A DNA stretch of 18,425 bases from a virus, in UHGV virus genome UHGV-2152132; one strand, given 5' to 3'. How positions within the stretch are numbered: the first letter of the stretch is position 1; every line of letters begins with the position of its first letter. The position numbers were made by a program, and so were the translations under genes. The notes under the pieces are model-generated. The model saw only the letters and a program-made list of their open reading frames with translations. It did not search any database and was not told the origin of the DNA. This document shows positions 1 to 17,728 of the stretch, in pieces.

Positions 1-897
1 CTATGACTTGCTGTTTTCAGTAAGAGTCTTATCATCCAAAGAATTTATTCTAGAAATTCTTTTTAACTCATTAAGATAATCAACCTCGTTTTCTAAGAAC
101 CAATGAAGAACTTTAGAATTGCCAAGTAATTTATTAATATATGACTGGATTATAACGAATTTCAACATATCTGAACCATACTCGGTTTGAAGCTTTTTCG
201 TTTCTTCCGAAGTTGTTGCCATTTCTTGTTCCAGACGAAGTATGGTTTTTTTTATGTCCTTTTTATAGGGAGTGTTTTTCCCTTTATTTACTATCATCGA
301 TGCCGGTGTTGCATCCAAGATGCTCATTGCAAATTTTTTACTATAATTATCAAAATTAATCATTGTACCGACTGCTTCAATTTGGCGAATTGGCTTCATT
401 TTCCTCAAAACGTCAAATGTAGCCTTAGGTATAGGTTTATCAGAAAGTTTCGCAATTACACTTGAATCTATGCCGTTCATCACATTCGCTTTATCTTTTA
501 TGGCATCAACAGATATGCCCAAAGCAGCACTAAGTTTTTCAATTGATACTTTTGCCAGAGACTTAATTATCATTCTATGTTCTTCAACTACATTTATATG
601 ATTCACTTGTTTGTTAGGAGTGAAAGCATCATCTATGCTCGAAAGTATACATGGAGCTTTTTCTATACCTAAGTCTTTTAAAGCCTCAACCCTTAAATGG
701 CCATCAAGTATCTTAGTGACATCTTTATCTTTGTCATAGAATACTATTATTGGTTCAATAATACCTAAGCTTTCGATAGAGGTAACTATTTGATGATATT
801 TATGGCTTCGCTTTACGTTTTCTAATAATTCCTTAGATGGAATTAACTTATTAGTTTCCAGGTAAATAAAATTATCGCCAAAACGTATCTGAATCAT
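1..897 (-). CDS. ParB/Srx-fold (ParB N-terminal domain-like) protein, distal gene of AT-rich three-gene operon
   Basis: 298-aa ORF complete in window (stop at 1-3). ParB-box-like segment SIESLGIIEPIIVFYDKDKDVTKILDGHLRVEALKDLGIE. Start ATG overlaps the upstream gene stop (ATGA, 894-897); AAGAGG RBS about 7 nt upstream. Very low GC versus flanks. Family assignment is by motif, not search. Confidence 0.55.
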   Translation of the reverse strand: MIQIRFGDNFIYLETNKLIPSKELLENVKRSHKYHQIVTSIESLGIIEPIIVFYDKDKDVTKILDGHLRVEALKDLGIEKAPCILSSIDDAFTPNKQVNHINVVEEHRMIIKSLAKVSIEKLSAALGISVDAIKDKANVMNGIDSSVIAKLSDKPIPKATFDVLRKMKPIRQIEAVGTMINFDNYSKKFAMSILDATPASMIVNKGKNTPYKKDIKKTILRLEQEMATTSEETKKLQTEYGSDMLKFVIIQSYINKLLGNSKVLHWFLENEVDYLNELKRISRINSLDDKTLTENSKS

Positions 898-1790
898 TTT
901 AATACCTCTTTGTTTACTGGGGTTAATATCTGAGATGGTAGTTCTGAAAGATTCTCTTGTTCAAGTATATGTTGAAAGCTTTTATTCATCATTATGATGT
1001 TAAAAATCTCATTTACTATTAGTAGGTTGGTTTTTATGAATTTTGAGTTGTTATAAACAGATTTATGTTCAGCGATACTATTTTCATAAAGCTCAATCAA
1101 CTCCTCTGCAGTCATCCTTTTTGATGGTTTGTGATAATAAAATCCGGCTGCTTTTGCACCTTTATTCCCAACTGTTCTTTGATTTAGAATGTGTTTTATC
1201 TTTATAATGTCCCGACTTTTTATTAATTTTTTATCATATGCTTCGGTAAGAATATCTTGTGCTTCCTCAGTTTCACATCTTGCAAATTGCACTGCGAGAT
1301 ACAGAGGCAAATTACCCCGTTCGACTGCTGAGAGAAGTTTATGCTCTCCCTTATCAAGTAGCATATTAATACTGCTCACCCAGTTCGATGAATATCCAGT
1401 AATCTCACTTATTTCGGAGTCTGAAAGTCCTCTGATTTTCATGTCTTTAATCACCTGTAATAACTCATTAGAACGTGGTCTTCTCCTTGCAATGTTTTCA
1501 ACTAAACTCATAACGTAAGCATCTTCTTCTGATACATCTCTTATAATTGCTGGAATAATAGTTTCACCTAATGCAACGAGAGCCTCTATTCTCCCTTGAC
1601 CACAAATTAAAGCATATTTGAAATCGCCTTCATCAATAGCTCTTACGCTTATAGGCTTGCTTAATCCTCTTTTTTTTATGCTTTCCTTTATTTCTTCATG
1701 CACTACCTTATTTCTTGTTCGTGGGTTAAGAAATTTTATTTTTGCAATCTCAATTTGAATTATTGGGAATTCATTTTTTTCAGGCAGCAT
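894..1790 (-). CDS. ParB-like nuclease/partition-family protein (ParB N-terminal domain plus HTH-like segment)
   Basis: 298-aa ORF. ParB box II-like motif KYALICGQGRIEALVALGETIIPAIIRDVSEEDAYVMSLVENIARR, followed by HTH-like GLSDSEISEITGYSSNWVSSINML. GAGGGA RBS 5-6 nt upstream. First 11 nt overlap the end of the upstream recombinase gene. Confidence 0.6.
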   Translation of the reverse strand: MLPEKNEFPIIQIEIAKIKFLNPRTRNKVVHEEIKESIKKRGLSKPISVRAIDEGDFKYALICGQGRIEALVALGETIIPAIIRDVSEEDAYVMSLVENIARRRPRSNELLQVIKDMKIRGLSDSEISEITGYSSNWVSSINMLLDKGEHKLLSAVERGNLPLYLAVQFARCETEEAQDILTEAYDKKLIKSRDIIKIKHILNQRTVGNKGAKAAGFYYHKPSKRMTAEELIELYENSIAEHKSVYNNSKFIKTNLLIVNEIFNIIMMNKSFQHILEQENLSELPSQILTPVNKEVLK

Positions 1791-3336
1791 ATAGTTCCCT
1801 CACTTTCATGCGAGTAATAATTTGTAGAAGTTTATCAAGATTATCAAATCTATAGAGATCTAATCGAATGTTGTTTGTTTCCGTCATGCACATTTTATTA
1901 TATTCGTTTTCAATCTTTGGTATGATATAAAAATCAAGAGGTGAAATATTTTGTGAATTCATTCGTATAACAATTGTTATGTCTGCTTTCTGTGAGTTAT
2001 CAAACCGGACTTTCCATCTAAGTTTACCTGATTTCATATGTATGCATTTAGTAACAAGGACGGAAATTAAAAACTCATCATTGATGTAAAGCATTGGGGC
2101 ATATTTATACTCGTCTATATGACAGTTGCTTTTTAAAATTTCACCCTTAAAATCCTCAATTATCTCTGAGTAAAATGATCTTAGTGCTTCATTTATTTTG
2201 AGATAGCTGTAATCATGTTCTGGCTTATAACCAATCAAAGTATATGCTCTTAAAAGACCACCAAATCGGGTTCTATAAACAGAAGATGAAGGGCCTGTAT
2301 CATCTTCATCAATGATAAAGCCTGATAGTTTTCCATTAGATTCTAATTTTTGTTTTAGTTTTTCTAATAGATCTTCATTAGTCAAATGAATGGATCGGAG
2401 CTGAATTATTTCTTGAGCTTTATTGTATTTTTTCTTTGAAATAATAGGTTTATATGCCTTGTCACATCTAACCCATTCATGTTTGGGGTTTTTTACAAGC
2501 CTACTTTTTAATTTAGATGAGGTTTTGTTATATATGTTGTTTCCAATATATTTTTCATTTGTCAAAATTTGATGTATTTTTGCACGAGTCCATAATGTAC
2601 CATTTTCTGCAGGTATGTTCTGTTCATTTAATCTCTCAGCAATAATGAATTCTGGGACGTTATTATCTATAAAGAGATCATATATTCTATTTACAATTTT
2701 TATTTCATTTTTTGGTCCCGGAATTAATATTACCCTATCTGTTTGAATACTCTTTCTTTTGCGGAAACTCAATATTTCTTTAGCTATGCCATTTTCGTCT
2801 ACTAAAAGACGTCTCAGCCCATAACCAGCCATACCGCCTTGATGATAACCAAGCTTTATTAAATTTACTTGCCCTATAAATACCTTTTCAGATAGATTCC
2901 TGCTGTGATATGCAGCACTAGATCTTTTTATATTCAGTATAACAGAGGACTCTAAAGGGAAATCTTTAGTGGGTATAGGTTCGGAACAATATATAAGATC
3001 TACACCATTTCTCTCAAATAGAAAGGAATAATATGCCGCTTCATCACTATTTTGAAAACGACCAAAACGGCTCACATCATAAAATAATACAGCCTGTATA
3101 TCTATTTTCTTTTGTTCTACATCGCTAAGTAACTGCTGCAAAGAATGCCTGCCTACGATACTGACTCCGCTCTTACCTGAATCATCGTAGGTATAAGCGA
3201 TTTCCATATTGTTCTTTTCAGCATAATCTTTGATATATTCGGACTGATTATGTAAAGAATATTGCTGATGGTCGGTAGACATCCTCAAGTACTGCGCGAC
3301 CCTAACTCTATGATTTTTGTCATTTTCGCTAGCCAT
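1780..3336 (-). CDS. Large serine recombinase family protein (resolvase-type catalytic domain plus recombinase domain, long C-terminal extension)
   Basis: 518-aa ORF. N-terminal catalytic signature RVAQYLRMSTDHQ (Ser nucleophile context) and DDSGKSG; recombinase-domain-like GQVNLIKLGYHQGGMAGYGLRR. First gene of the operon, GAGG RBS upstream. AT-rich codon usage. Confidence 0.75.
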   Translation of the reverse strand: MASENDKNHRVRVAQYLRMSTDHQQYSLHNQSEYIKDYAEKNNMEIAYTYDDSGKSGVSIVGRHSLQQLLSDVEQKKIDIQAVLFYDVSRFGRFQNSDEAAYYSFLFERNGVDLIYCSEPIPTKDFPLESSVILNIKRSSAAYHSRNLSEKVFIGQVNLIKLGYHQGGMAGYGLRRLLVDENGIAKEILSFRKRKSIQTDRVILIPGPKNEIKIVNRIYDLFIDNNVPEFIIAERLNEQNIPAENGTLWTRAKIHQILTNEKYIGNNIYNKTSSKLKSRLVKNPKHEWVRCDKAYKPIISKKKYNKAQEIIQLRSIHLTNEDLLEKLKQKLESNGKLSGFIIDEDDTGPSSSVYRTRFGGLLRAYTLIGYKPEHDYSYLKINEALRSFYSEIIEDFKGEILKSNCHIDEYKYAPMLYINDEFLISVLVTKCIHMKSGKLRWKVRFDNSQKADITIVIRMNSQNISPLDFYIIPKIENEYNKMCMTETNNIRLDLYRFDNLDKLLQIITRMKVRELYAA

Positions 3337-3618
3337 GCACGAAACCTCATGGATGATTCAATACAATGTAGTGGATAAAATTGATCAAATTTTAACCGAA
3401 TTCAACTGTTTTATCATTGATTAGAGCGAATTTGGTAGATCTTCGAGGTGTATGATAATCGAGAAGAGATGTGAATTATTTAGCTGATATGACCGACAGC
3501 TTTCGTTATGTGGACTCAATGTCCCCATTTGTAAATGGCTATGCTTAGTCCACATAGGTTAATGGTGTGATTATTAATTCTTTAACTAAATCAAGATAGT
3601 TAATCCATCATGGGAGAG
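3337..3618 (-). promoter_or_regulatory. AT-rich leader/promoter region of the recombinase-ParB-ParB operon, containing a nested palindrome
   Basis: 282-bp non-coding gap between the integrase stop and the recombinase start. Perfect 9-bp inverted repeat ATGTGGACT (3508-3516) / AGTCCACAT (3547-3555) enclosing CCATTT-GT-AAATGG (3524-3537). No promoter hexamers confidently assigned. Confidence 0.35.
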
Positions 3619-4848
3619 TTATGCGGCAATAACTTTGCATTTTTGAGACGAAACATAGTCACTCCACCATTGCATGAGAACCACCCGTTCAGTGAGATAC
3701 TCTGCACGATTGTAGGCTGCAATTATTTCATCTTTCTTCGAGTGGGCAAGGGCGGCTTCTAAGACATCAGTCCTAAACTTGCCAGACTCCTCAGCAGCCG
3801 TTCTAGCAATGGATCGCATACCGTGAGCTACAAGCTCACCTCCGAAACCCATACGGATTATGGCCGCATTAGCTGTTTGTTCATGCATGTGATTGAGTGG
3901 AGCTTTGATACTGGGGAACACCCACTCTCTATGCCCGCTGATGACTTTCATTAAATCCAAAACTCGCAAAGCTTCTTTGCTCAGTGGAACTTTGTGAGGC
4001 TTCTTCATTTTCATAAACTCCGCCGGGATGTTCCACATGCCAGTTTCAATATCAATATCTGACCATCTTGTGCGAACAGCTTCACCTGGGCGAACCCATG
4101 TGAGAAGTTGCCACTCAATCAGTAGCCTTGTTTCCAAACGGATAGAAGCATTGTTTAGAGCAACCAAGAAGCGAGGGAGTTCGGAAGGGGGTAATGCTGG
4201 CATATTCTGTTTTTTTGGCTTGCTGAACCGTTGCCCCAGGTTGTCTGCCGGGTTGAATTCTATGAGTTCTTCTGTTGCTGCATAGCGGAAAATTTCATTC
4301 AGGCGGGATATGATGCGGCGAAGTGTTTCAAGGACACCTCGTTTTTCTATGGGTTCTAAATGCTGTTTAAGCATTTTAGGGCGAATCTCCTTAATTGGGG
4401 TATCACCCAATGTGGAAAAGATATTTCTCTCTAGGCTTCGCCAGATGTCGTTAGCATGATCTTGGGAGATGCCTGACGTTTTGACTTTCTCATCAAGCCA
4501 CTTCTTGGCTACTGCTTGAAATGTATGTTCCGTGGCATCTTTCAGTGCATTGGCTTTTTGGTTGTTATGAACTTGGGGGTCTATACCATTTGTAAGCAAC
4601 GACAAGTATTCATCACGTAAAGCTCGTGCCTTCGCAAGTGTAAGGTGAGGATAGGTTCCTAAGCTCACCTTAGTTCGCTTTTTGGTCACAGGCACTGCAT
4701 ATCTGAAATACCAATTTTTCTTCCCTCCCTTCGCCAGGGGAGCGATTCGCAACAGCAAACCATCGCCGTCAAAAAGGTTAACCTCTTTTTCGGCAGGTTT
4801 GGTGCTTTTGATTTCAGTGTCAGTGAGCTTCTTAGCGATTTTGGCCAT
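3619..4848 (-). CDS. P4-type (IntA/SlpA-like) tyrosine integrase
   Basis: ORF track gives 3619..4929 (436 aa). The probable true start is the internal Met of MAKIAKKLTDTEIKSTKP (about 4848), the typical P4-family integrase N-terminus. C-terminal catalytic residues: AHGMRSIARTAAE (H-x-x-R) and IIAAYNRAEY (Tyr nucleophile). Lies next to the ssrA 3'-end repeat, same orientation as ssrA. Confidence 0.85.
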   Translation of the reverse strand: MAKIAKKLTDTEIKSTKPAEKEVNLFDGDGLLLRIAPLAKGGKKNWYFRYAVPVTKKRTKVSLGTYPHLTLAKARALRDEYLSLLTNGIDPQVHNNQKANALKDATEHTFQAVAKKWLDEKVKTSGISQDHANDIWRSLERNIFSTLGDTPIKEIRPKMLKQHLEPIEKRGVLETLRRIISRLNEIFRYAATEELIEFNPADNLGQRFSKPKKQNMPALPPSELPRFLVALNNASIRLETRLLIEWQLLTWVRPGEAVRTRWSDIDIETGMWNIPAEFMKMKKPHKVPLSKEALRVLDLMKVISGHREWVFPSIKAPLNHMHEQTANAAIIRMGFGGELVAHGMRSIARTAAEESGKFRTDVLEAALAHSKKDEIIAAYNRAEYLTERVVLMQWWSDYVSSQKCKVIAA

Positions 4849-4944
4849 GTTTGGGACCCTCGATTTTAGGACCCATCTTCGTGGGTCCCATTCAGGGTGC
4901 CATAACTCGTAGTTCTCAGCAATTCTCACTAGACTACAATAGAC

Positions 4945-4986
4945 GTAAAAAAGCCCGCAGAGCTTGTGCTGTGCGGGCTTAGTAGA
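4945..4986 (-). terminator. Rho-independent terminator (minus strand) just downstream of the partial ssrA 3' copy
   Basis: 9-bp stem AAGCCCGCA (4951-4959) / TGCGGGCTT (4972-4980), 12-nt loop. On the minus strand the hairpin is followed by a T-run (complement of AAAAAA at 4945-4950). Confidence 0.55.
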
Positions 4987-5010: not shown

Positions 5011-5059
5011 TATTTGGTGGAGCTGGCGGGAGTTGAACCCGCGTCCGAAATTCCTACAT
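5011..5059 (-). repeat. att core: 49-bp exact direct repeat of the ssrA 3' end (partial tmRNA copy)
   Basis: tatttggtggagctggcgggagttgaacccgcgtccgaaattcctacat is identical at 5011-5059 and 17362-17410. It contains the 3'-terminal 45 nt of tmRNA; flanking bases differ. Confidence 0.9.
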
Positions 5060-5144: not shown

Positions 5145-6404
5145 TTAACTCTCCGCCGCCAAATTGCCGCCATCAGGTAGATGCTCATGCTTCATCATTT
5201 GGTGGATAAGAACTTCTACTTTTCTGAAGGTCGTATTGTCATAGTACTCAACAAGTGATTCATCGAAATCCTCTATCCAACCTTTTGCTGGGCCATTTGT
5301 TTGATATCTGACGGCAGTTGGTGAGTGGAAGTTGGGAGTAGCCTTTAAAGTGCTAAACACAGCCCATGATACTGGGTTAGTCACTTTAAATATTCTCTTC
5401 AATTCAGGGCAGTACAACGTGTTTGGTACAGTTATTCGTTCCATTTTAGGGGGTAAGATTACATTAATACCGATGTCACTATCTTTTTGATTAAGTATTT
5501 TTGTCGAACGATACGATATTCCAGAAATATCCTTGTTGCTATCACTGCTAATCCATTGCATTAATAGGTTTGGAATAATGTATTCTTTGTGAAAATTTGC
5601 ATGTTCATGATCTTTTGTATAGTTACAGGCCAATACTAAAGGCCATGCGATTAGTTTTGAAACCTTATCATTAATCGGGTCTGAGAAATCACTATAATTT
5701 TCATTGTTGTATTCATCTATGCGTTCAGGCTCAAATGAAAATGAATGCTCACTTGGAGTGGAACGTAGTGCTGACGTTAGGTTGTATCCGAGGTCTAGTA
5801 TTCTAATTTGTGATGATTCGTCTTCAGTAATAAATGATGATATATACAGCTTATCGAAATCTGGTTTTCCCATCTCTTGCCAGCAAACAAATATTGATGT
5901 CCCAAGATATAGACATGGTAAACCTGAAACTGAGAAGCGTTGTGCGCTTACCAAATGTCTTTGACTAAAAGGAATGTGGAATAATTCTTCTCTATTTTTT
6001 AGTATGTTTTCACTTTTCCTAACCCGAAATAACGGAGTTCGTCTATTACAAAGTTTTGTTAACGGAACCGTCATTTGATAAATGTGGTTCTTCATTGCTG
6101 GTGAACCTATTATAGCTTGGTTGAAAGTATTATAGGCTTCTTTAATATTACCGTTAAGATAATGGGTTAACGTTTCAGATATTTTATTGGAGAATGTTGT
6201 GATTGAAATCGATCTTTTTTTTACCTCTTTTATTGTTTCGTTGTCTGGATAGTCCTTTCTTATTTTATCAATAGCTTCAAGATAACAATCAATCCTGTTT
6301 TTAAAGTTGGATACAATGTCGCCATTGGCCTTGAATGGGGGTTGAAGTAGTTCATATTGTAATAATGAATCTGATATTTCTTTCAGTTCTGAATATTTGC
6401 GCAT
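5145..6404 (-). CDS. RES-domain-like protein (putative NAD+-targeting toxin/abortive-infection-type effector); prophage cargo between att and int
   Basis: 419-aa ORF, AT-rich relative to neighbouring phage genes. Central segment LFRVRKSENILKNREELFHIPFSQRHLVSAQRFSVSGLPCLYLGTSIFVCWQEMGKP resembles the RES-domain core (R ... G.P.LY..S....E). Starts 10 nt after the integrase stop, weak RBS, so probably co-transcribed with int. Domain call by pattern only. Confidence 0.45.
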   Translation of the reverse strand: MRKYSELKEISDSLLQYELLQPPFKANGDIVSNFKNRIDCYLEAIDKIRKDYPDNETIKEVKKRSISITTFSNKISETLTHYLNGNIKEAYNTFNQAIIGSPAMKNHIYQMTVPLTKLCNRRTPLFRVRKSENILKNREELFHIPFSQRHLVSAQRFSVSGLPCLYLGTSIFVCWQEMGKPDFDKLYISSFITEDESSQIRILDLGYNLTSALRSTPSEHSFSFEPERIDEYNNENYSDFSDPINDKVSKLIAWPLVLACNYTKDHEHANFHKEYIIPNLLMQWISSDSNKDISGISYRSTKILNQKDSDIGINVILPPKMERITVPNTLYCPELKRIFKVTNPVSWAVFSTLKATPNFHSPTAVRYQTNGPAKGWIEDFDESLVEYYDNTTFRKVEVLIHQMMKHEHLPDGGNLAAES

Positions 6405-6414
6405 GAGAATTATT

Positions 6415-7431
6415 TCAATTAAGGTTGATTAATGGATTCTTAGTCACAGCATCTTCGAGATGTTCTGGAGAAAAATGTGCATATATCATTGTCATTTTAA
6501 TATCAGTGTGACCCAAGATTTCTTTAAGTACCAGTATGTTTCCGCCGTTCATCATAAAGTGACTGGCGAATGTATGACGCAGAACGTGGGTACATTGACC
6601 TTCCGGCAGCTCAATACCGGCCCTCTTTACTGCTCGTTCAAAAGCTTTTCTGCATGGAGTGAATAATTTTCCTCTCTTTTTGGGGAGTTCGTCATACAGA
6701 TCCTGTGATATTGGCACTGTTCTGTTTTTCTTGCCCTTAGTCTTGGTGTAAGTGATGCGGTATTTTGACAACTGGTGTCCCTGTAGGTTTTCGGCTTCAC
6801 TCCATCGCGCGCCGGTGGCCAGGCAGATTTTTGTAATCAAAAGCAGGCTGGGGCTTTGAGAATCAGCGCAGGCATCCAGCAGACGTTTAATTTCTTCCGG
6901 GGTCAGGAACGCCAGTTCACCCTCAGCAATTTTAAATGTTGGCAGCCCGGCAAGTGGGTTGGGGGCTGACCAATGGCCCAGCTTTTTCAGTGTACCAAAT
7001 ACCGATGATAGGTTACGCTGTTCAAGGTTTACCGTGCGGGGCTTAACGGGCGACATAAGCGTGCCATCTTCATTTCGCACTTCACCTTTTAGCCGTGCTT
7101 CGCGGTATTTCGTAAAGTCACCGGCTGTCAGTTCTGAGGCGATGGGATCGCCTAGACCATTACAGATAATTTTAAGTTTCGCCATGAGGCGCTTGGGGTC
7201 TGCGAGTGTCTGACCGTACAGGGAATACCAAAGCTCAATTAATTCTGATAGGCGTCGCCGATCATCCTTTTCTCCTAACCACGGTTTTTTGTTCACTTCT
7301 TCCATTGTGAAGCTTTCAAACGCAATAGCTTCGCCTTTGGTAGCAAATTGCTTACGCACGCGCTTGCCATTGCGTCCATTGGGATAGCACTCACACAACC
7401 ATTTTCCGTTCGGCTGTTTTCTGATGGTCAT
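6415..7431 (-). CDS. int: P2/186-family tyrosine integrase
   Basis: 338-aa ORF with catalytic motifs ATGARWSEA (Arg), HVLRHTFASH (His-x-x-Arg) and MIYAHF (Tyr). Position next to the CI-type repressor is typical of P2-like phages. Confidence 0.88.
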   Translation of the reverse strand: MTIRKQPNGKWLCECYPNGRNGKRVRKQFATKGEAIAFESFTMEEVNKKPWLGEKDDRRRLSELIELWYSLYGQTLADPKRLMAKLKIICNGLGDPIASELTAGDFTKYREARLKGEVRNEDGTLMSPVKPRTVNLEQRNLSSVFGTLKKLGHWSAPNPLAGLPTFKIAEGELAFLTPEEIKRLLDACADSQSPSLLLITKICLATGARWSEAENLQGHQLSKYRITYTKTKGKKNRTVPISQDLYDELPKKRGKLFTPCRKAFERAVKRAGIELPEGQCTHVLRHTFASHFMMNGGNILVLKEILGHTDIKMTMIYAHFSPEHLEDAVTKNPLINLN

Positions 7432-7432
7432 T

Positions 7433-8065
7433 TCAAAGGCTCTTAATGATTTTCAGTGCGCGGCCTACTACCTCAATGTCATCCAGGCCGCACTCAAACG
7501 ATGAATCATCCTGATGCACTACTAATTTGTTTCCCGGGAGTCGAGTCAATTTAACGATGCTTTTTATCCCGTCGATATCGACTAACCACATACCATTTAC
7601 TGGTGGTGTTTGGTTGCGATCTATTAAATAAGAATCACCAGAAGTAGTCACCAGCAGTAGGTTGCTTGAGTCTGAGGGGAGTATGCTGCTATCAATGATT
7701 GCTTTTCCAGCATCGACCAATAAACCACCGTTGAGAGTCGCCTTGTCAATTTCAGGAGATACTAGTTCAGAAAGAGGTACAACCTTGCTGGAGTTCACGG
7801 AATTGATATTTTTTTTAGGTTCAATGTTTGGACCTGGCTCCCCCTGTCCGGTGGTTAGCCACAGTAAAGAAACTCCTGTTTCCAAGGCGCACTGAATCAC
7901 CCACTCTGCAGGAAAACTATCTCTTAAGTATCTGTTTGCCATGGTGCTTTTTGATGCGCCTAAGTGATCGCAAAGTTGCTGTCTGGACTTGAAATCATAG
8001 GCTGCCATTAGTCTATGGATAGCCTCTCTTCCCCCTGTATTCTCTCCAACCTTTACCTGTATCAT
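7433..8065 (-). CDS. 186-type CI immunity repressor
   Basis: 210-aa ORF. N-terminal HTH region SRQQLCDHLGASKSTMANRYLRD and the segment QCALETGVSLLWLTTGQGEP, characteristic of phage 186/PSP3/Fels-2 CI. Divergent from the apl/cII-like genes across an operator-bearing gap. Confidence 0.75.
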   Translation of the reverse strand: MIQVKVGENTGGREAIHRLMAAYDFKSRQQLCDHLGASKSTMANRYLRDSFPAEWVIQCALETGVSLLWLTTGQGEPGPNIEPKKNINSVNSSKVVPLSELVSPEIDKATLNGGLLVDAGKAIIDSSILPSDSSNLLLVTTSGDSYLIDRNQTPPVNGMWLVDIDGIKSIVKLTRLPGNKLVVHQDDSSFECGLDDIEVVGRALKIIKSL

Positions 8066-8184
8066 TTTTTAATCCTGTTGACGTATCAAATATTGGATCG
8101 TAGTATCTCGATGTATCAAATATTGAATCAAGTAAAACGAGATAAAACGACGTAAACCAAACCTTAATCGGGAGATACTGCACT
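8066..8184. promoter_or_regulatory. Divergent switch region (pR/pL-like) with direct-repeat operator candidates
   Basis: 17-bp direct repeat GTATCAAATATTG(G/A)ATC at 8083-8099 and 8113-8129, 30 bp centre to centre. Rightward sigma70-like promoter TTGACG (8077-8082), 18-bp spacer, TAGTAT (8101-8106); the first repeat overlaps its spacer. Confidence 0.5.
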
Positions 8185-8459: not shown

Positions 8460-8855
8460 ATGTTTGATTATAAGATTTCCAAACACCCGCATTTTGATGA
8501 AGCCTGTAGAGCTTTTGCACTTCGTCACAATATGGCGAAGCTGGCAGAACGTGCAGGAATGAATGTCCAGACTCTGCGAAACAAACTCAACCCAGATCAA
8601 CCGCATCAGCTCAATGCGCCAGATATCTGGCTACTTACCGATCTGACGGAAGATTCAACGCTGGTAGACGGTTTTCTGGCACAGATTCACTGCCTGCCAT
8701 GTGTACCGATTAATGAGGTGGCAAAAGAGAAACTGCCACATTACGTCATGAGTGCAACCGCAGAGATCGGGCGTGTTGCTGCAGGTGCGGTATCCGTTCC
8801 GACGTTCCTCGTTGCCGCTTCTCCCAAACCAACGTTTAAGAAAATGCAGAGGTAA
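8460..8855 (+). CDS. CII-like phage regulatory protein (186 CII family), possibly C-terminally altered
   Basis: 131-aa ORF. N-terminal MFDYKISKHPHFDEACRAFALRHNMAKLAERAGMNVQTLRNKLNPDQ resembles 186-type CII. AAGGGGG RBS. Gene ends 38 bp before the invertase, where the normal early-region genes are missing. Confidence 0.55.
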   Translation: MFDYKISKHPHFDEACRAFALRHNMAKLAERAGMNVQTLRNKLNPDQPHQLNAPDIWLLTDLTEDSTLVDGFLAQIHCLPCVPINEVAKEKLPHYVMSATAEIGRVAAGAVSVPTFLVAASPKPTFKKMQR

Positions 8856-8899
8856 CAGCTAACTGGCATCATCTCCGGTTTTTATTCAGGGGGATGATC

Positions 8900-9466
8900 A
8901 TGCTTATTGGCTATGTACGCGTGTCAACAAATGACCAGAACACCGATTTGCAACGTAATGCACTGAACTGCGCGGGATGTGAGCAGATTTTTGAGGACAA
9001 AATCAGTGGCACTAAGTCCGACAGACCGGGGCTGAAAAAACTACTCAGGACACTATCGGCAGGAGACACGCTGGTTGTCTGGAAGCTGGACAGGTTGGGG
9101 CGCAGTATGCGGCATCTTGTTACGCTGATAGAAGAGTTGCGCCAGCGTGGTGTGAATTTCAGAAGCCTGACTGACAGTATTGATACCAGTACCCCAATGG
9201 GCCGTTTCTTTTTTCATGTCATGGGTGCCCTGGCTGAAATGGAACGCGAACTGATAGTTGAACGTACCAGGGCAGGGCTGGCTGCAGCTCGTGCCAAAGG
9301 CAGAGTAGGTGGACGCCGTCCTAAGTTGACCACCGAACAGTGGGCACAGATTGGGCGTTTACTCGAGGCCGGAGAATCAAGACAGCGTATTGCACTGATT
9401 TTTGATGTAGGCGTTTCTACCATTTATAGAAAATTTCCGGCAAATAAGATCAATGAATCCCCCTGA
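8900..9466 (+). CDS. Site-specific DNA invertase, Gin/Pin/Cin/Hin family (small serine recombinase)
   Basis: Starts MLIGYVRVSTNDQNTDLQRNAL...GDTLVVWKLDRLGRSM...SPMGRFFFHVMGALAEMERELI, the canonical invertase sequence, with C-terminal HTH. ORF track starts at 8894 (MIM...); ATG 8900 has better spacing from AGGGGG (8888-8893). Confidence 0.92.
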   Translation: MLIGYVRVSTNDQNTDLQRNALNCAGCEQIFEDKISGTKSDRPGLKKLLRTLSAGDTLVVWKLDRLGRSMRHLVTLIEELRQRGVNFRSLTDSIDTSTPMGRFFFHVMGALAEMERELIVERTRAGLAAARAKGRVGGRRPKLTTEQWAQIGRLLEAGESRQRIALIFDVGVSTIYRKFPANKINESP

Positions 9467-16741: not shown

Positions 16742-16763
16742 ACCTGCTACGGCAGGTTTTTAT
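16742..16763 (+). terminator. Rho-independent terminator after ogr
   Basis: Stem ACCTGC (16742-16747) / GCAGGT (16752-16757), 4-nt loop, followed by TTTTTAT on the plus strand. Confidence 0.6.
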
Positions 16764-17242
16764 TCATCTGGGATCTCACCCGTTTCAAGAAAATGTATAA
16801 AGCCAGGCTCATCTATGATGATTGTGCCTTTCATCCTGGCTGCCGATACTTTTGATGGGCCTGCATTGTAACCGCAACAGAGCATCTGAAGGCTTTGGGT
16901 TACAGAGGTTCTTACCGTTAATCCTTGTTCATTCGCCTTATCAACCAATCTTTCTTTATCTGCTTTCTTAAATCCGGTGAAACACACATCGAATGTATTT
17001 TTTTTCGGACCAGACTGCTTAGTGAGATGTGAGTAGTTTTCGGGGAGGAATGACGCGCATTCCTGAATGGCTTGTTCTGGTGAATCGTACTGTTTAAGAA
17101 TGCGGTCTTTTCGGAAGGTTTTTATTCGATCGGTGTTCTTACAAATGCCCTGTATATGATTTTCGCTATAACTGATGCTCTGTATTGAGTGAACTCCGAT
17201 ACGACCATTTGCATTGATGTAAACAAAGTGAAGTTCTTCCAT
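16760..17242 (-). CDS. Small WYL-like / BRCT-like two-domain protein; prophage cargo between ogr and ssrA
   Basis: 160-aa ORF, AGAGG RBS 6 nt upstream. N-terminal HFVYINANGRIGVHSIQSISYSENHIQGICKNTDRIKTFRKDRI resembles a WYL domain. C-terminal FDVCFTGFKKADKERLVDKANEQGLTVRTSVTQSLQMLCCGYNAGPSKVSAARMKGTIIIDEPGFIHFLE resembles a BRCT domain. Pattern-based only. Confidence 0.45.
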   Translation of the reverse strand: MEELHFVYINANGRIGVHSIQSISYSENHIQGICKNTDRIKTFRKDRILKQYDSPEQAIQECASFLPENYSHLTKQSGPKKNTFDVCFTGFKKADKERLVDKANEQGLTVRTSVTQSLQMLCCGYNAGPSKVSAARMKGTIIIDEPGFIHFLETGEIPDE

Positions 17243-17320
17243 GTGAAACCTCTTTGCATGATTTCAAGAGGGCGACAGGCAAGATAGACGCAAAAGTCTG
17301 TCGCCATTTTGCCGCCACTA

Positions 17321-17361: not shown

Positions 17362-17410
17362 TATTTGGTGGAGCTGGCGGGAGTTGAACCCGCGTCCGAA
17401 ATTCCTACAT
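17362..17410 (-). repeat. att core at the intact ssrA 3' end (partner of 5011-5059)
   Basis: 49 bp identical to 5011-5059; covers the last 45 nt of ssrA plus 4 nt downstream. Confidence 0.9.
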
Positions 17411-17728
17411 CCTCGGTACTACATGCTTAGTCAGTCTTTATATTCGCTTGCCAGCTGCGGACGGACACGCCACTAACAAACTAGCCTGATTAAGTTTTAA
17501 CGCTTCAACCCCAGGCAGGGCTTCCACGCGATCTCTTTTGGGTTTGACCTCTCTTGATCCCCGTCCTAAGAGCGGAGGCTAGGGAGAGAGGGCTCTAAGC
17601 AGGTTATTAAGCTGCTAAAGCGTAGTTTTCGTCGTTTGCGACTATTTTTTGCGGCTTTTTACGAGGCCAACCGCCCCTCGGCATGCACCTTGGGTTTCGC
17701 AAATCCCGTCGAATCCAGAATCAGCCCC
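17366..17728 (-). ncRNA. ssrA: tmRNA (transfer-messenger RNA, SsrA)
   Basis: Reverse complement reads GGGGCTGATTCTGGATTCGACGGGATTTGCGAAACCC...GGTTCAACTCCCGCCAGCTCCACCA, 363 nt, matching enterobacterial tmRNA end to end, including the tRNA-like 3' end with CCA. Confidence 0.95.

Follow-up and report, generated by a model that had tools for sequence, protein, structure and literature searches.

A RES-fold gene between the integrase gene and the att core

We analyzed an 18,425-nt stretch of DNA, UHGV virus genome UHGV-2152132 (the window), which carries a 12.35-kb prophage element and, within it, an open reading frame (ORF) for a 419-aa protein lying between the integrase gene (int) and the attachment-site (att) core. 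The assignment of this protein to the RES fold is well supported and we hold it with high confidence. As for its role, we consider it fairly probable that it is a standalone, three-module RES-fold enzyme, expressed in the lysogen, autoinhibited, and acting against phages by depleting NAD+. The position of the gene is defined by the following features.

5011-5059, no strand: att core copy at the int-proximal end of the prophage, repeating the ssrA 3' end perfectly over 49 nt
5145-6404, minus strand: whole ORF with stop codon, encoding the 419-aa RES-fold protein (phrog_7835 family), from the ORF list and its translation; ATG start
5155-5172, plus strand: probable pair of Int arm-type sites, GCCGCCAAATTGCCGCCA, which overlaps the ORF at its 3' end
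6405-6414, minus strand: 10-nt spacer between int and the ORF, AATAATTCTC, read directly from the sequence
6415-7431, minus strand: tyrosine integrase of the 186/Fels-2 type (Pfam Int_N 1.2e-29, Phage_integrase 6.7e-26), with its TGA stop codon at 6415-6417
17300-17317, plus strand: matching arm-type site pair in the other attP arm, a second copy of 5155-5172
17362-17410, no strand: att core copy at the other prophage end, within the intact tmRNA gene

The ATG of the ORF (6404) follows the int stop codon after exactly 10 nt, and no Shine-Dalgarno-like motif was found within this spacer. The GC content of the ORF is 36%, compared with 48–51% in sliding windows centred on int (6501-7500). The stop codon lies 85 nt from the att core and the ORF is therefore inside the prophage, between the att repeats and in the int-att position that hotspot cargo occupies. 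An earlier note on this DNA, made from the letters alone, had described an AT-rich ORF between int and the att core, 10 nt past the int stop; both the spacing and the composition were confirmed. Its further statement that int normally ends near attP also holds, as the int stop codon lies ~118 nt from the core in E. coli NCTC11023, in which the slot is empty, and the int end of Fels-2 is 118 nt from the annotated attP part, while SEN8 has no cargo gene between int and att.

An alignment of the core-proximal DNA of five prophages showed a conserved attP arm of ~125 nt, which ends in the pair GCCGCCAAANTGCCGCCA (5155-5172) in all five prophages, including the one with the empty slot. Divergence starts directly after this pair and stops at the int stop codon, and the slot is therefore bounded by these two elements. 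The pair consists of GCCGCCA motifs 11 nt apart, for which two matches were found vs. 0.08 expected by chance, and the copies at 5155-5172 and 17300-17317 probably serve as arm-type binding sites for Int. Conserved attP arm DNA supplies the last nine codons of the ORF (GGNLAAES and the stop), which explains the GGxLAAE tail common to a subset of otherwise divergent homologues; in the AlphaFold2 (AF2) model this tail is disordered. The idea that excision or integration alters the C-terminus of the protein was rejected, as the stop codon is located in the phage arm, 85 nt from the core.

RES fold and predicted active site

The earlier note had likened the central region of the protein to the Arg/Glu/Ser core of RES-domain NAD+-degrading toxins. 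The quoted motif is indeed present, with FRVR at residues 126-129 and QRFSVSGLPCLYLGTSIFVCWQEMG at residues 155-179. R156, Y166, and E177 lie within the latter stretch, but the Ser of the triad is located further downstream, at S300. A search with the hidden Markov model of Pfam RES (PF08808), proposed in the same note, gave a match at residues 140-207 (E 0.049), but its score of 14.1 bits is under the gathering cut-off of 23.2 bits. Pfam RES was at the same time the only family recurring across the homologues, with matches in 22/36 close and 34/59 distant members (56/95; best E 1.5e-5), most family members being sub-threshold. The family is too divergent for capture by the Pfam RES model.

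Standalone RES proteins, termed aRES, protect E. coli from phages through depletion of NAD+ to ADP-ribose-1''-phosphate (ADPR-1P) and growth arrest (Osterman et al., bioRxiv 10.64898/2026.01.28.702374). Three experimentally validated aRES sequences from that study were used for comparison. With one of them, that of E. coli UC5, BLASTP aligned residues 125-317 of the 419-aa protein to residues 180-352 (E 1e-6, 24% identity across 200 residues) and paired R156 (in the QRFS stretch), Y166, E177, S300, and N314 with aRES R215, Y225, E236, S334, and N349, respectively. When a profile of 59 family members was compared with one of 32 aRES homologues by hhalign, the match covered 173 columns of the RES core with a probability of 93.9% (E 1.6e-7). 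The earlier note would have given up its RES reading if neither a profile nor a structure search had shown significant RES or ART-fold similarity, and this profile match speaks against that outcome.

The predicted active site is strongly conserved. Among 59 diverse members, R129, R156, Y166, and E177 are each found in 59/59, N314 in 58/59, R127 in 57/59 with Lys in the other two, and position 300 is occupied by Ser in 52 and Thr in 6 sequences, so that the expected Arg, Arg, Tyr, Glu, Ser, and Asn are all in place. The active-site residues of the RES toxin NatT are R23, R82, Y93, S184, and N193 (PMC11535050); judging from motif context, and not from an alignment with NatT, their roles may be filled by R127/R129, R156, Y166, S300, and N314.

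These residues bear on a reading in which the protein is a ParT-like mono-ADP-ribosyltransferase, which would transfer ADP-ribose from NAD+ onto a host or phage protein or nucleic acid without depleting NAD+. The outcome, that is the exclusion of other phages or growth arrest, could match that of an NAD+-depleting enzyme. Nevertheless, the closest detectable relatives with a known product are the aRES proteins, which yield ADPR-1P, and the family retains the R/Y/N constellation that characterizes the phosphorolytic RES clade. We regard a transferase of this kind as unlikely.

Searches of structure databases were less productive. Family profiles run against all Protein Data Bank (PDB) sequences, twice at full length and once with the RES core alone, retrieved no RES chain and returned only designed helical bundles, which matched the N-terminal domain by composition. 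In the fold comparison suggested in the earlier note, a RES/ART three-dimensional fold was found; Foldseek gave no significant match in the PDB, the best being ParT (E 0.42), and nothing was retrieved from the BFVD viral models. The lines of evidence for RES are convergent but individually modest, and partly independent of each other.

Modules and distribution of the family

An AF2 model calculated from 36 homologues (pLDDT 81.5, pTM 0.82) divides the protein into three modules.

6060-6404, minus strand: N-terminal all-helical domain, residues ~1-115, with six helices (H2-14 to H102-110), mostly at pLDDT >90
5445-6047, minus strand: RES/ART-fold catalytic core, residues ~120-320, alpha/beta, with a variable low-confidence insert at 217-240
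5148-5444, minus strand: C-terminal alpha/beta extension, residues ~321-419 (modelled ~325-412), family-specific and unassigned, with conserved C332, P344, W347, Y388, and F393

The N-terminal domain contains a YLxGxxxxAY motif in which G85 is invariant, and it has no match in Pfam, NCBIfam, or PADLOC. At the level of the whole protein, neither NCBIfam nor PADLOC (2023) contains a matching model and RefSeq names it hypothetical. PHROG 7835, to which no function is assigned, matches it end to end (E 3.7e-166).

A word-indexed search returned 285 homologues, and the 120 listed are near full length. Precomputed Pfam domains are absent from all 120, of which UniRef gives the name RES domain-containing protein to only two. 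Hosts in this search included Escherichia, Salmonella, Klebsiella, Enterobacter, Cronobacter, Serratia, Pectobacterium, and others. In an exhaustive profile search, 2722 representatives of 50%-identity clusters were obtained at E <=0.001 and 1147 at <=1e-30, and these ~2,700 clusters spread over Proteobacteria, Bacteroidota, and phages of Firmicutes. The yopC gene of Bacillus phage SPbeta (NC_001884.1 71852-72781) is also a member (28.5% identity, tblastn E 5e-36), and the family therefore reaches temperate phages of Gram-positive bacteria. Whatever the host, the GC content of all family genes examined is 32–36%.

A 611-aa family member, P0146, combines a RES-like module (residues 29-322) with a LlaMI/MvaI-BcnI-type restriction endonuclease domain (388-609, E 2.8e-42). 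Whether this is a genuine fusion or two genes merged in the calling, its predicted domains tie the family to restriction-type genes.

The breadth of the family is decisive for one further explanation, namely that the gene encodes a degenerate, non-catalytic RES-like protein or is a chance open frame in AT-rich DNA. The sub-threshold Pfam score and the lack of a significant Foldseek match would be in line with this. Yet it is effectively refuted by the conservation across 285 homologues and 2722 cluster representatives (E <=0.001), together with the full-length PHROG match, the confident AF2 model, and the essentially invariant catalytic positions, and its probability is negligible.

Occupants of the int-att slot in related prophages

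The earlier note had proposed to look for homologues in the int-att slot of other P2-like prophages. They are indeed present there, in prophages of Salmonella, Klebsiella, and E. coli and in phage Cartapus, placed 4–12 nt after int and before the att core. In E. coli these include a complete prophage of PEC1011 (99.5% nucleotide identity) as well as S88, MS7163, and N53 (79% nucleotide identity). The Klebsiella homologue has 57% amino-acid identity and that of Salmonella 39%; the latter occurs at four places in three listed loci, and the exact protein in 6108 collection blocks. In the inducible phage Cartapus the slot holds gp33, while in RE2010 and SopEPhi the homologues are found immediately upstream of int, close to where the record starts.

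A 2026 survey described the integrase-att interval of P2-like prophages as a minor hotspot of defence, with 3% of P2 systems located in it (PMC13586616). In the 60 E. coli sequences that best matched the att-int-cI-cII region, the slot was filled by an anti-phage dCTP deaminase (14/60), GapS1 (12/60), an HNH endonuclease (3/60), the 419-aa RES-fold family (4/60), or other hypothetical genes (23/60); in three cases it held nothing, and one partial match was not classifiable. The flanks of differing slots are 86–94% identical. The content varies among prophages that are otherwise nearly identical, and includes known defence genes.

The gene is solitary in its slot. The absence of an Xre-type partner, stated in the earlier note, was upheld, with int upstream and 85 nt followed by the att core downstream of the gene. 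Distant homologues, from Pectobacterium and from a Bacteroidota-like contig, are solitary too. A hidden antisense partner within the gene was considered and rejected: ORFs found in several homologues differ in position and length, and there are none in one distant homologue.

These observations bear on the possibility that the protein is an addiction or stabilization toxin, or an effector of stress or persistence comparable to NatT and MbcT, with an inhibitor acting in cis (the extra domains) or in trans (a prophage product), and that its benefit is prophage retention or host tolerance and not phage immunity. All structurally solved RES proteins are toxins of toxin-antitoxin pairs, and the gene sits at the very edge of its element and survives in a decayed prophage, both of which would fit. 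Against this, the gene has neither an Xre, MbcA, or ParS-like neighbour nor a conserved ORF overlapping it, sister prophages hold bona fide anti-phage genes in the same slot, and a standalone architecture is the hallmark of anti-phage aRES, not of toxin-antitoxin toxins. We therefore find a role in addiction or persistence distinctly unlikely.

The surroundings of some slots are also rich in defence-type genes. In the Salmonella and Klebsiella loci L002, L004, L005, and L007, tandem islands with a P4-type integrase are located just beyond the RES-like gene and its att copy, and they carry SIR2-like and DUF87, Lamassu-like (LmuB_C), or helicase and PLD genes. In L003, genes for QatB, a QueC-like protein, TatD, and KAP_NTPase follow, and no P4-type integrase was called. 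In view of the defence-type genes in these adjoining islands, the ssrA locus is a compound defence region.

Predicted expression and state of the prophage

Three further features concern the transcription of the gene.

4951-4965, minus strand: terminator-like hairpin with a T-run, the first candidate downstream of the ORF, just past the att core
7433-8065, minus strand: CI repressor of the 186 type, first gene of the leftward lysogenic operon (Pfam Phage_CI_repr 5.4e-31, Phage_CI_C 5.6e-28)
8061-8089, minus strand: pL-like sigma-70 promoter candidate directly upstream of CI (TTGATA, 17-nt spacer, AATGAT; 9/12 consensus)

In lysogens of phage 186, cI and int are co-transcribed from pL. In the window, the pL-like promoter faces a pR-like promoter, and consensus matching detected no promoter-like or terminator-like site within the CI-int-ORF stretch. 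The pL-like site is a consensus match only, and the number of such sites in the region equals that expected from shuffled sequence. The earlier note had suggested expression from the lysogenic CI/int transcript. The layout is consistent with it, given the pL-like promoter and the lack of an intervening site, while expression itself is what we infer from this arrangement. The co-transcription of cI and int in 186, together with the short spacer devoid of a ribosome-binding site, suggests low-level and possibly int-coupled translation in the lysogen. Read-through is not a requirement of the slot as such, since the dCTP deaminase occupant has the opposite orientation. The intergenic region between CI and apl also contains a 20-nt direct repeat (8080-8099 and 8110-8129; 90% identical, 30 nt apart), which overlaps the pL- and pR-like promoters and probably represents CI operator sites.

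The element is delimited by the 49-nt perfect direct repeat (5011-5059 and 17362-17410), the second copy of which is the ssrA 3' end. From the ssrA side it contains a BRCT-like ORF, ogr, the tail genes D, U, T, E, FII, and FI, and a Hin-type invertase, followed by a truncated cII, apl/cox, CI, int, and the 419-aa ORF. Its CI, CII, and gene order assign the prophage to the 186/Fels-2 type (Peduoviridae), and the int-cI region shows 77–88% nucleotide identity to Fels-2, SEN8, SopEPhi, and Klebsiella phages. The label P2-type used in the earlier note is thus right in the sense of P2-like, but the subgroup is 186/Fels-2 and not P2 proper.

The match to the complete prophage of E. coli PEC1011 ends at ~8794, inside cII (8460-8855), whose product has 131 aa in the window vs. 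169 aa. Beyond this point there is an invertase-sheath junction as in many P2-like prophages, an arrangement normally found after the tail-fibre genes. The similarity break in cII and this junction indicate that the element is a deletion remnant. Judging from the comparison, ~20 kb has been deleted and the replication, lysis, head, and baseplate genes are gone. The CI-int-RES-like block is intact despite this decay.

The orientation of the gene and the state of its prophage also bear on a role in the phage's own lytic cycle or in counter-defence, for instance the destruction of NAD+-derived immune signals or the remodelling of host metabolism, with expression after induction. Homologues do occur in the inducible phages Cartapus, RE2010, and SopEPhi and in SPbeta (yopC), and ART-fold enzymes serve both sides of phage-host conflicts. 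The gene is, however, co-oriented with cI-int and directly follows them, on the strand opposite the lytic operon; it shares its slot with defence genes and has been kept in a remnant no longer able to go lytic. A lytic or counter-defence function is in our view very improbable.

Neighbouring genes and elements

The remaining features of the window lie outside the CI-int-ORF block.

8894-9466: Hin-type invertase
17366-17728, minus strand: tmRNA gene ssrA, host DNA at the right end, tag ANDENYALAA
17943-18425: smpB, host DNA at the right end (Pfam SmpB 1.5e-57)

Across attP from the RES-like gene, a 160-aa ORF (16760-17242, minus strand) lies in the stretch that separates ogr from the ssrA/att core. 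It gives a sub-threshold BRCT match (E 0.0011) and a match to PHROG 2561, ‘DNA ligase’ (2.2e-77), and it corresponds in size and place to gp32 of phage Cartapus, a ‘putative exonuclease’. This ORF may mark a second cargo slot flanking attP.

The left end of the window (1-4950) is a second island of 30–37% GC, inserted in tandem at the ssrA att copy. It encodes a P4-type integrase (3619-4929), a 518-aa large serine recombinase (1780-3336), and two ParB/RepB-like proteins; the ParB-like proteins gave weak PADLOC matches to a type II methyltransferase model. The island is 100% identical to that of E. coli B, BL21(DE3), and C, and was found at >=80% coverage in 622 of 5426 complete E. coli genomes.

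Proposed role of the 419-aa protein

The reading that we favour brings these results together as follows. In the lysogen, transcription from pL would run through cI and int into the gene, with low-level translation that may be coupled to that of int. The resulting enzyme would be held inactive by its own N-terminal helical bundle, acting as a sensor or autoinhibitory module, and/or by its C-terminal module. Infection by another phage would release the inhibition and the RES core would cleave NAD+, most likely by phosphorolysis to nicotinamide and ADPR-1P, as MbcT, NatT, and aRES do. The resulting depletion of NAD+ would arrest the cell and abort the infection, and in this way the lysogen population and its prophage would be protected. 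What the analyses established in favour of such a role are the fold, the active-site positions, the solitary architecture, the conservation of the slot, in which both orthologues and distant paralogues are found in inducible phages and in prophages from several enterobacterial genera, and the sharing of the slot with defence genes.

Several points weigh against it. The Pfam RES score is below the gathering threshold (14.1 vs. 23.2 bits), PADLOC and NCBIfam are silent, and neither the PDB profile searches nor Foldseek recovered a RES structure at significance. From the RES fold by itself, NAD+ phosphorolysis cannot be told apart from ADP-ribosylation of proteins as by ParT, and the trigger, the autoinhibition, and the lysogenic expression of the 419-aa protein are all inferred. 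Two non-prophage contexts, in Pectobacterium and on the Bacteroidota-like contig, are not obvious defence islands, and the family is also present, as yopC, in Bacillus phage SPbeta. In the literature searched, which included the DefensePredictor paper, there was no experiment on any family member, yopC included.

RES enzymes were long known solely as toxins of toxin-antitoxin systems. In 2026, aRES was reported as an anti-phage NAD+ phosphorylase that evades the commonest phage pathway for rebuilding NAD+ (bioRxiv 10.64898/2026.01.28.702374). The present family is separate and very widespread, abundant in P2-like prophages of Salmonella, Klebsiella, and E. coli, and was missed by defence-finding models and by the NCBI naming rules. 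If its members are active, the share of bacteria with RES-type NAD+ depletion exceeds current estimates, and the int-att slot of Fels-2/186-like prophages would be a natural cassette site in which to find single-gene defences. The differing accessory domains would also allow a direct comparison of one catalytic core wired to different triggers. It is possible, although we put this forward only tentatively and with more doubt than confidence, that the phrog_7835 family is a second, independent, and perhaps larger lineage of single-protein RES immunity, in which its own bundle of four to six helices and the C-terminal module act as built-in antitoxin and as sensor of a phage trigger other than that of aRES; the product might differ, or a macromolecule might be ADP-ribosylated. 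A lineage of this kind would change which phage countermeasures, such as the NARP1-AP phosphatase and aRad1, work against the family.

Comparison with known systems

Much of the setting was known before this analysis: the RES NADases, the anti-phage aRES proteins (2026 preprint), the P2 int-att hotspot (2026 paper), and a homologue whose database annotation reads putative RES protein. Close precedents exist for the hotspot, the mechanism, and the fold assignment alike, and none of them is a conceptual surprise. What is new is a large family missed by the Pfam thresholds, NCBIfam, and PADLOC, with a distinct N-terminal domain and a C-terminal module around an aRES-like core.

The annotated phage homologues, Cartapus gp33, the RE2010 and SopEPhi ORFs, and SPbeta YopC, are known by annotation alone. 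Gp33 of Escherichia phage Cartapus (‘putative RES protein, NAD+ binding domain’) shares 37.5% identity with the 419-aa protein, and the homologues of enterobacterial phages, which include the ORFs of Salmonella phages RE2010 and SopEPhi, 37.5–40%. Cartapus also has the same gene order, i.e., ogr, a small BRCT-like ORF, attP, the RES-like gene, int, and cI. YopC, in contrast, belongs to another kind of phage and is not encoded beside an integrase. With the cargo described for the P2-like int-att hotspot (PMC13586616) the gene shares the slot, from the int stop codon to the conserved attP arm, and the form of a single gene interchangeable between close prophages. The proteins themselves are unrelated to the dCTP deaminase and GapS1, and the RES-fold occupant is not recognized by PADLOC 2023.

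The toxins of the RES-Xre, MbcTA, ParST, and NatRT systems (PF08808, COG5654) are single-domain proteins of ~145–250 aa without a C-terminal extension, whose active site is plugged by an adjacently encoded Xre, MbcA, or ParS antitoxin. The 419-aa protein is two to three times larger than the RES-Xre toxins, has two additional domains, and has no such gene beside it. Because the partner gene is missing, we do not count it among the RES-Xre toxins.

The aRES proteins are closer. Like them, the 419-aa protein is the product of a single gene without antitoxin and a multi-domain protein within the range of 300–600 aa, and both groups are found in Enterobacteriaceae and at mobile or defence loci. 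Their RES cores share homology (hhalign 93.9%; 24% identity across 200 residues), as reflected by the motifs of the family and of aRES: LFRxR in both, FHIPF in the family and FGPPP in aRES, (Q/G)R(F/M)(S/N), Y...E in both, G(I/V)S(Y/F)xST, and N(V)(I/V)L. By definition, however, aRES combines RES with an N-terminal HEPN/RES-NTD1 domain (PF18870), which includes a Cys4 zinc-ribbon (bioRxiv 10.64898/2026.01.28.702374). PF18870 gave no match in the 419-aa protein or in any of 95 family sequences, scanned at E up to 1 (36 members) or 0.1 (59 members), whereas all three aRES controls matched it (best E 2.7e-10); the N-terminal Cys4 motif of aRES is likewise absent from the family. An equivalence of the two N-terminal domains was considered and found unsupported: the hhalign alignment reached the N-terminus only when three aRES sequences were used and shrank to the RES core with the 32-sequence aRES profile, for which reason N-terminal homology was rejected. 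The family has an unrelated helical bundle in this place and a conserved C-terminal module of ~100 residues in addition. Pfam RES scores 53 bits for aRES vs. 14 for the 419-aa protein, and every aRES relative in the protein database has PF08808 and bears the name RES family NAD+ phosphorylase. Bacillus subtilis has zero entries in the published list of aRES genes, though SPbeta YopC belongs to the present family. With the HEPN/RES N-terminal domain replaced and a C-terminal module added, the 419-aa protein is not an aRES as defined in that study. From the sequence comparisons it is most likely a relative of the aRES anti-phage proteins.

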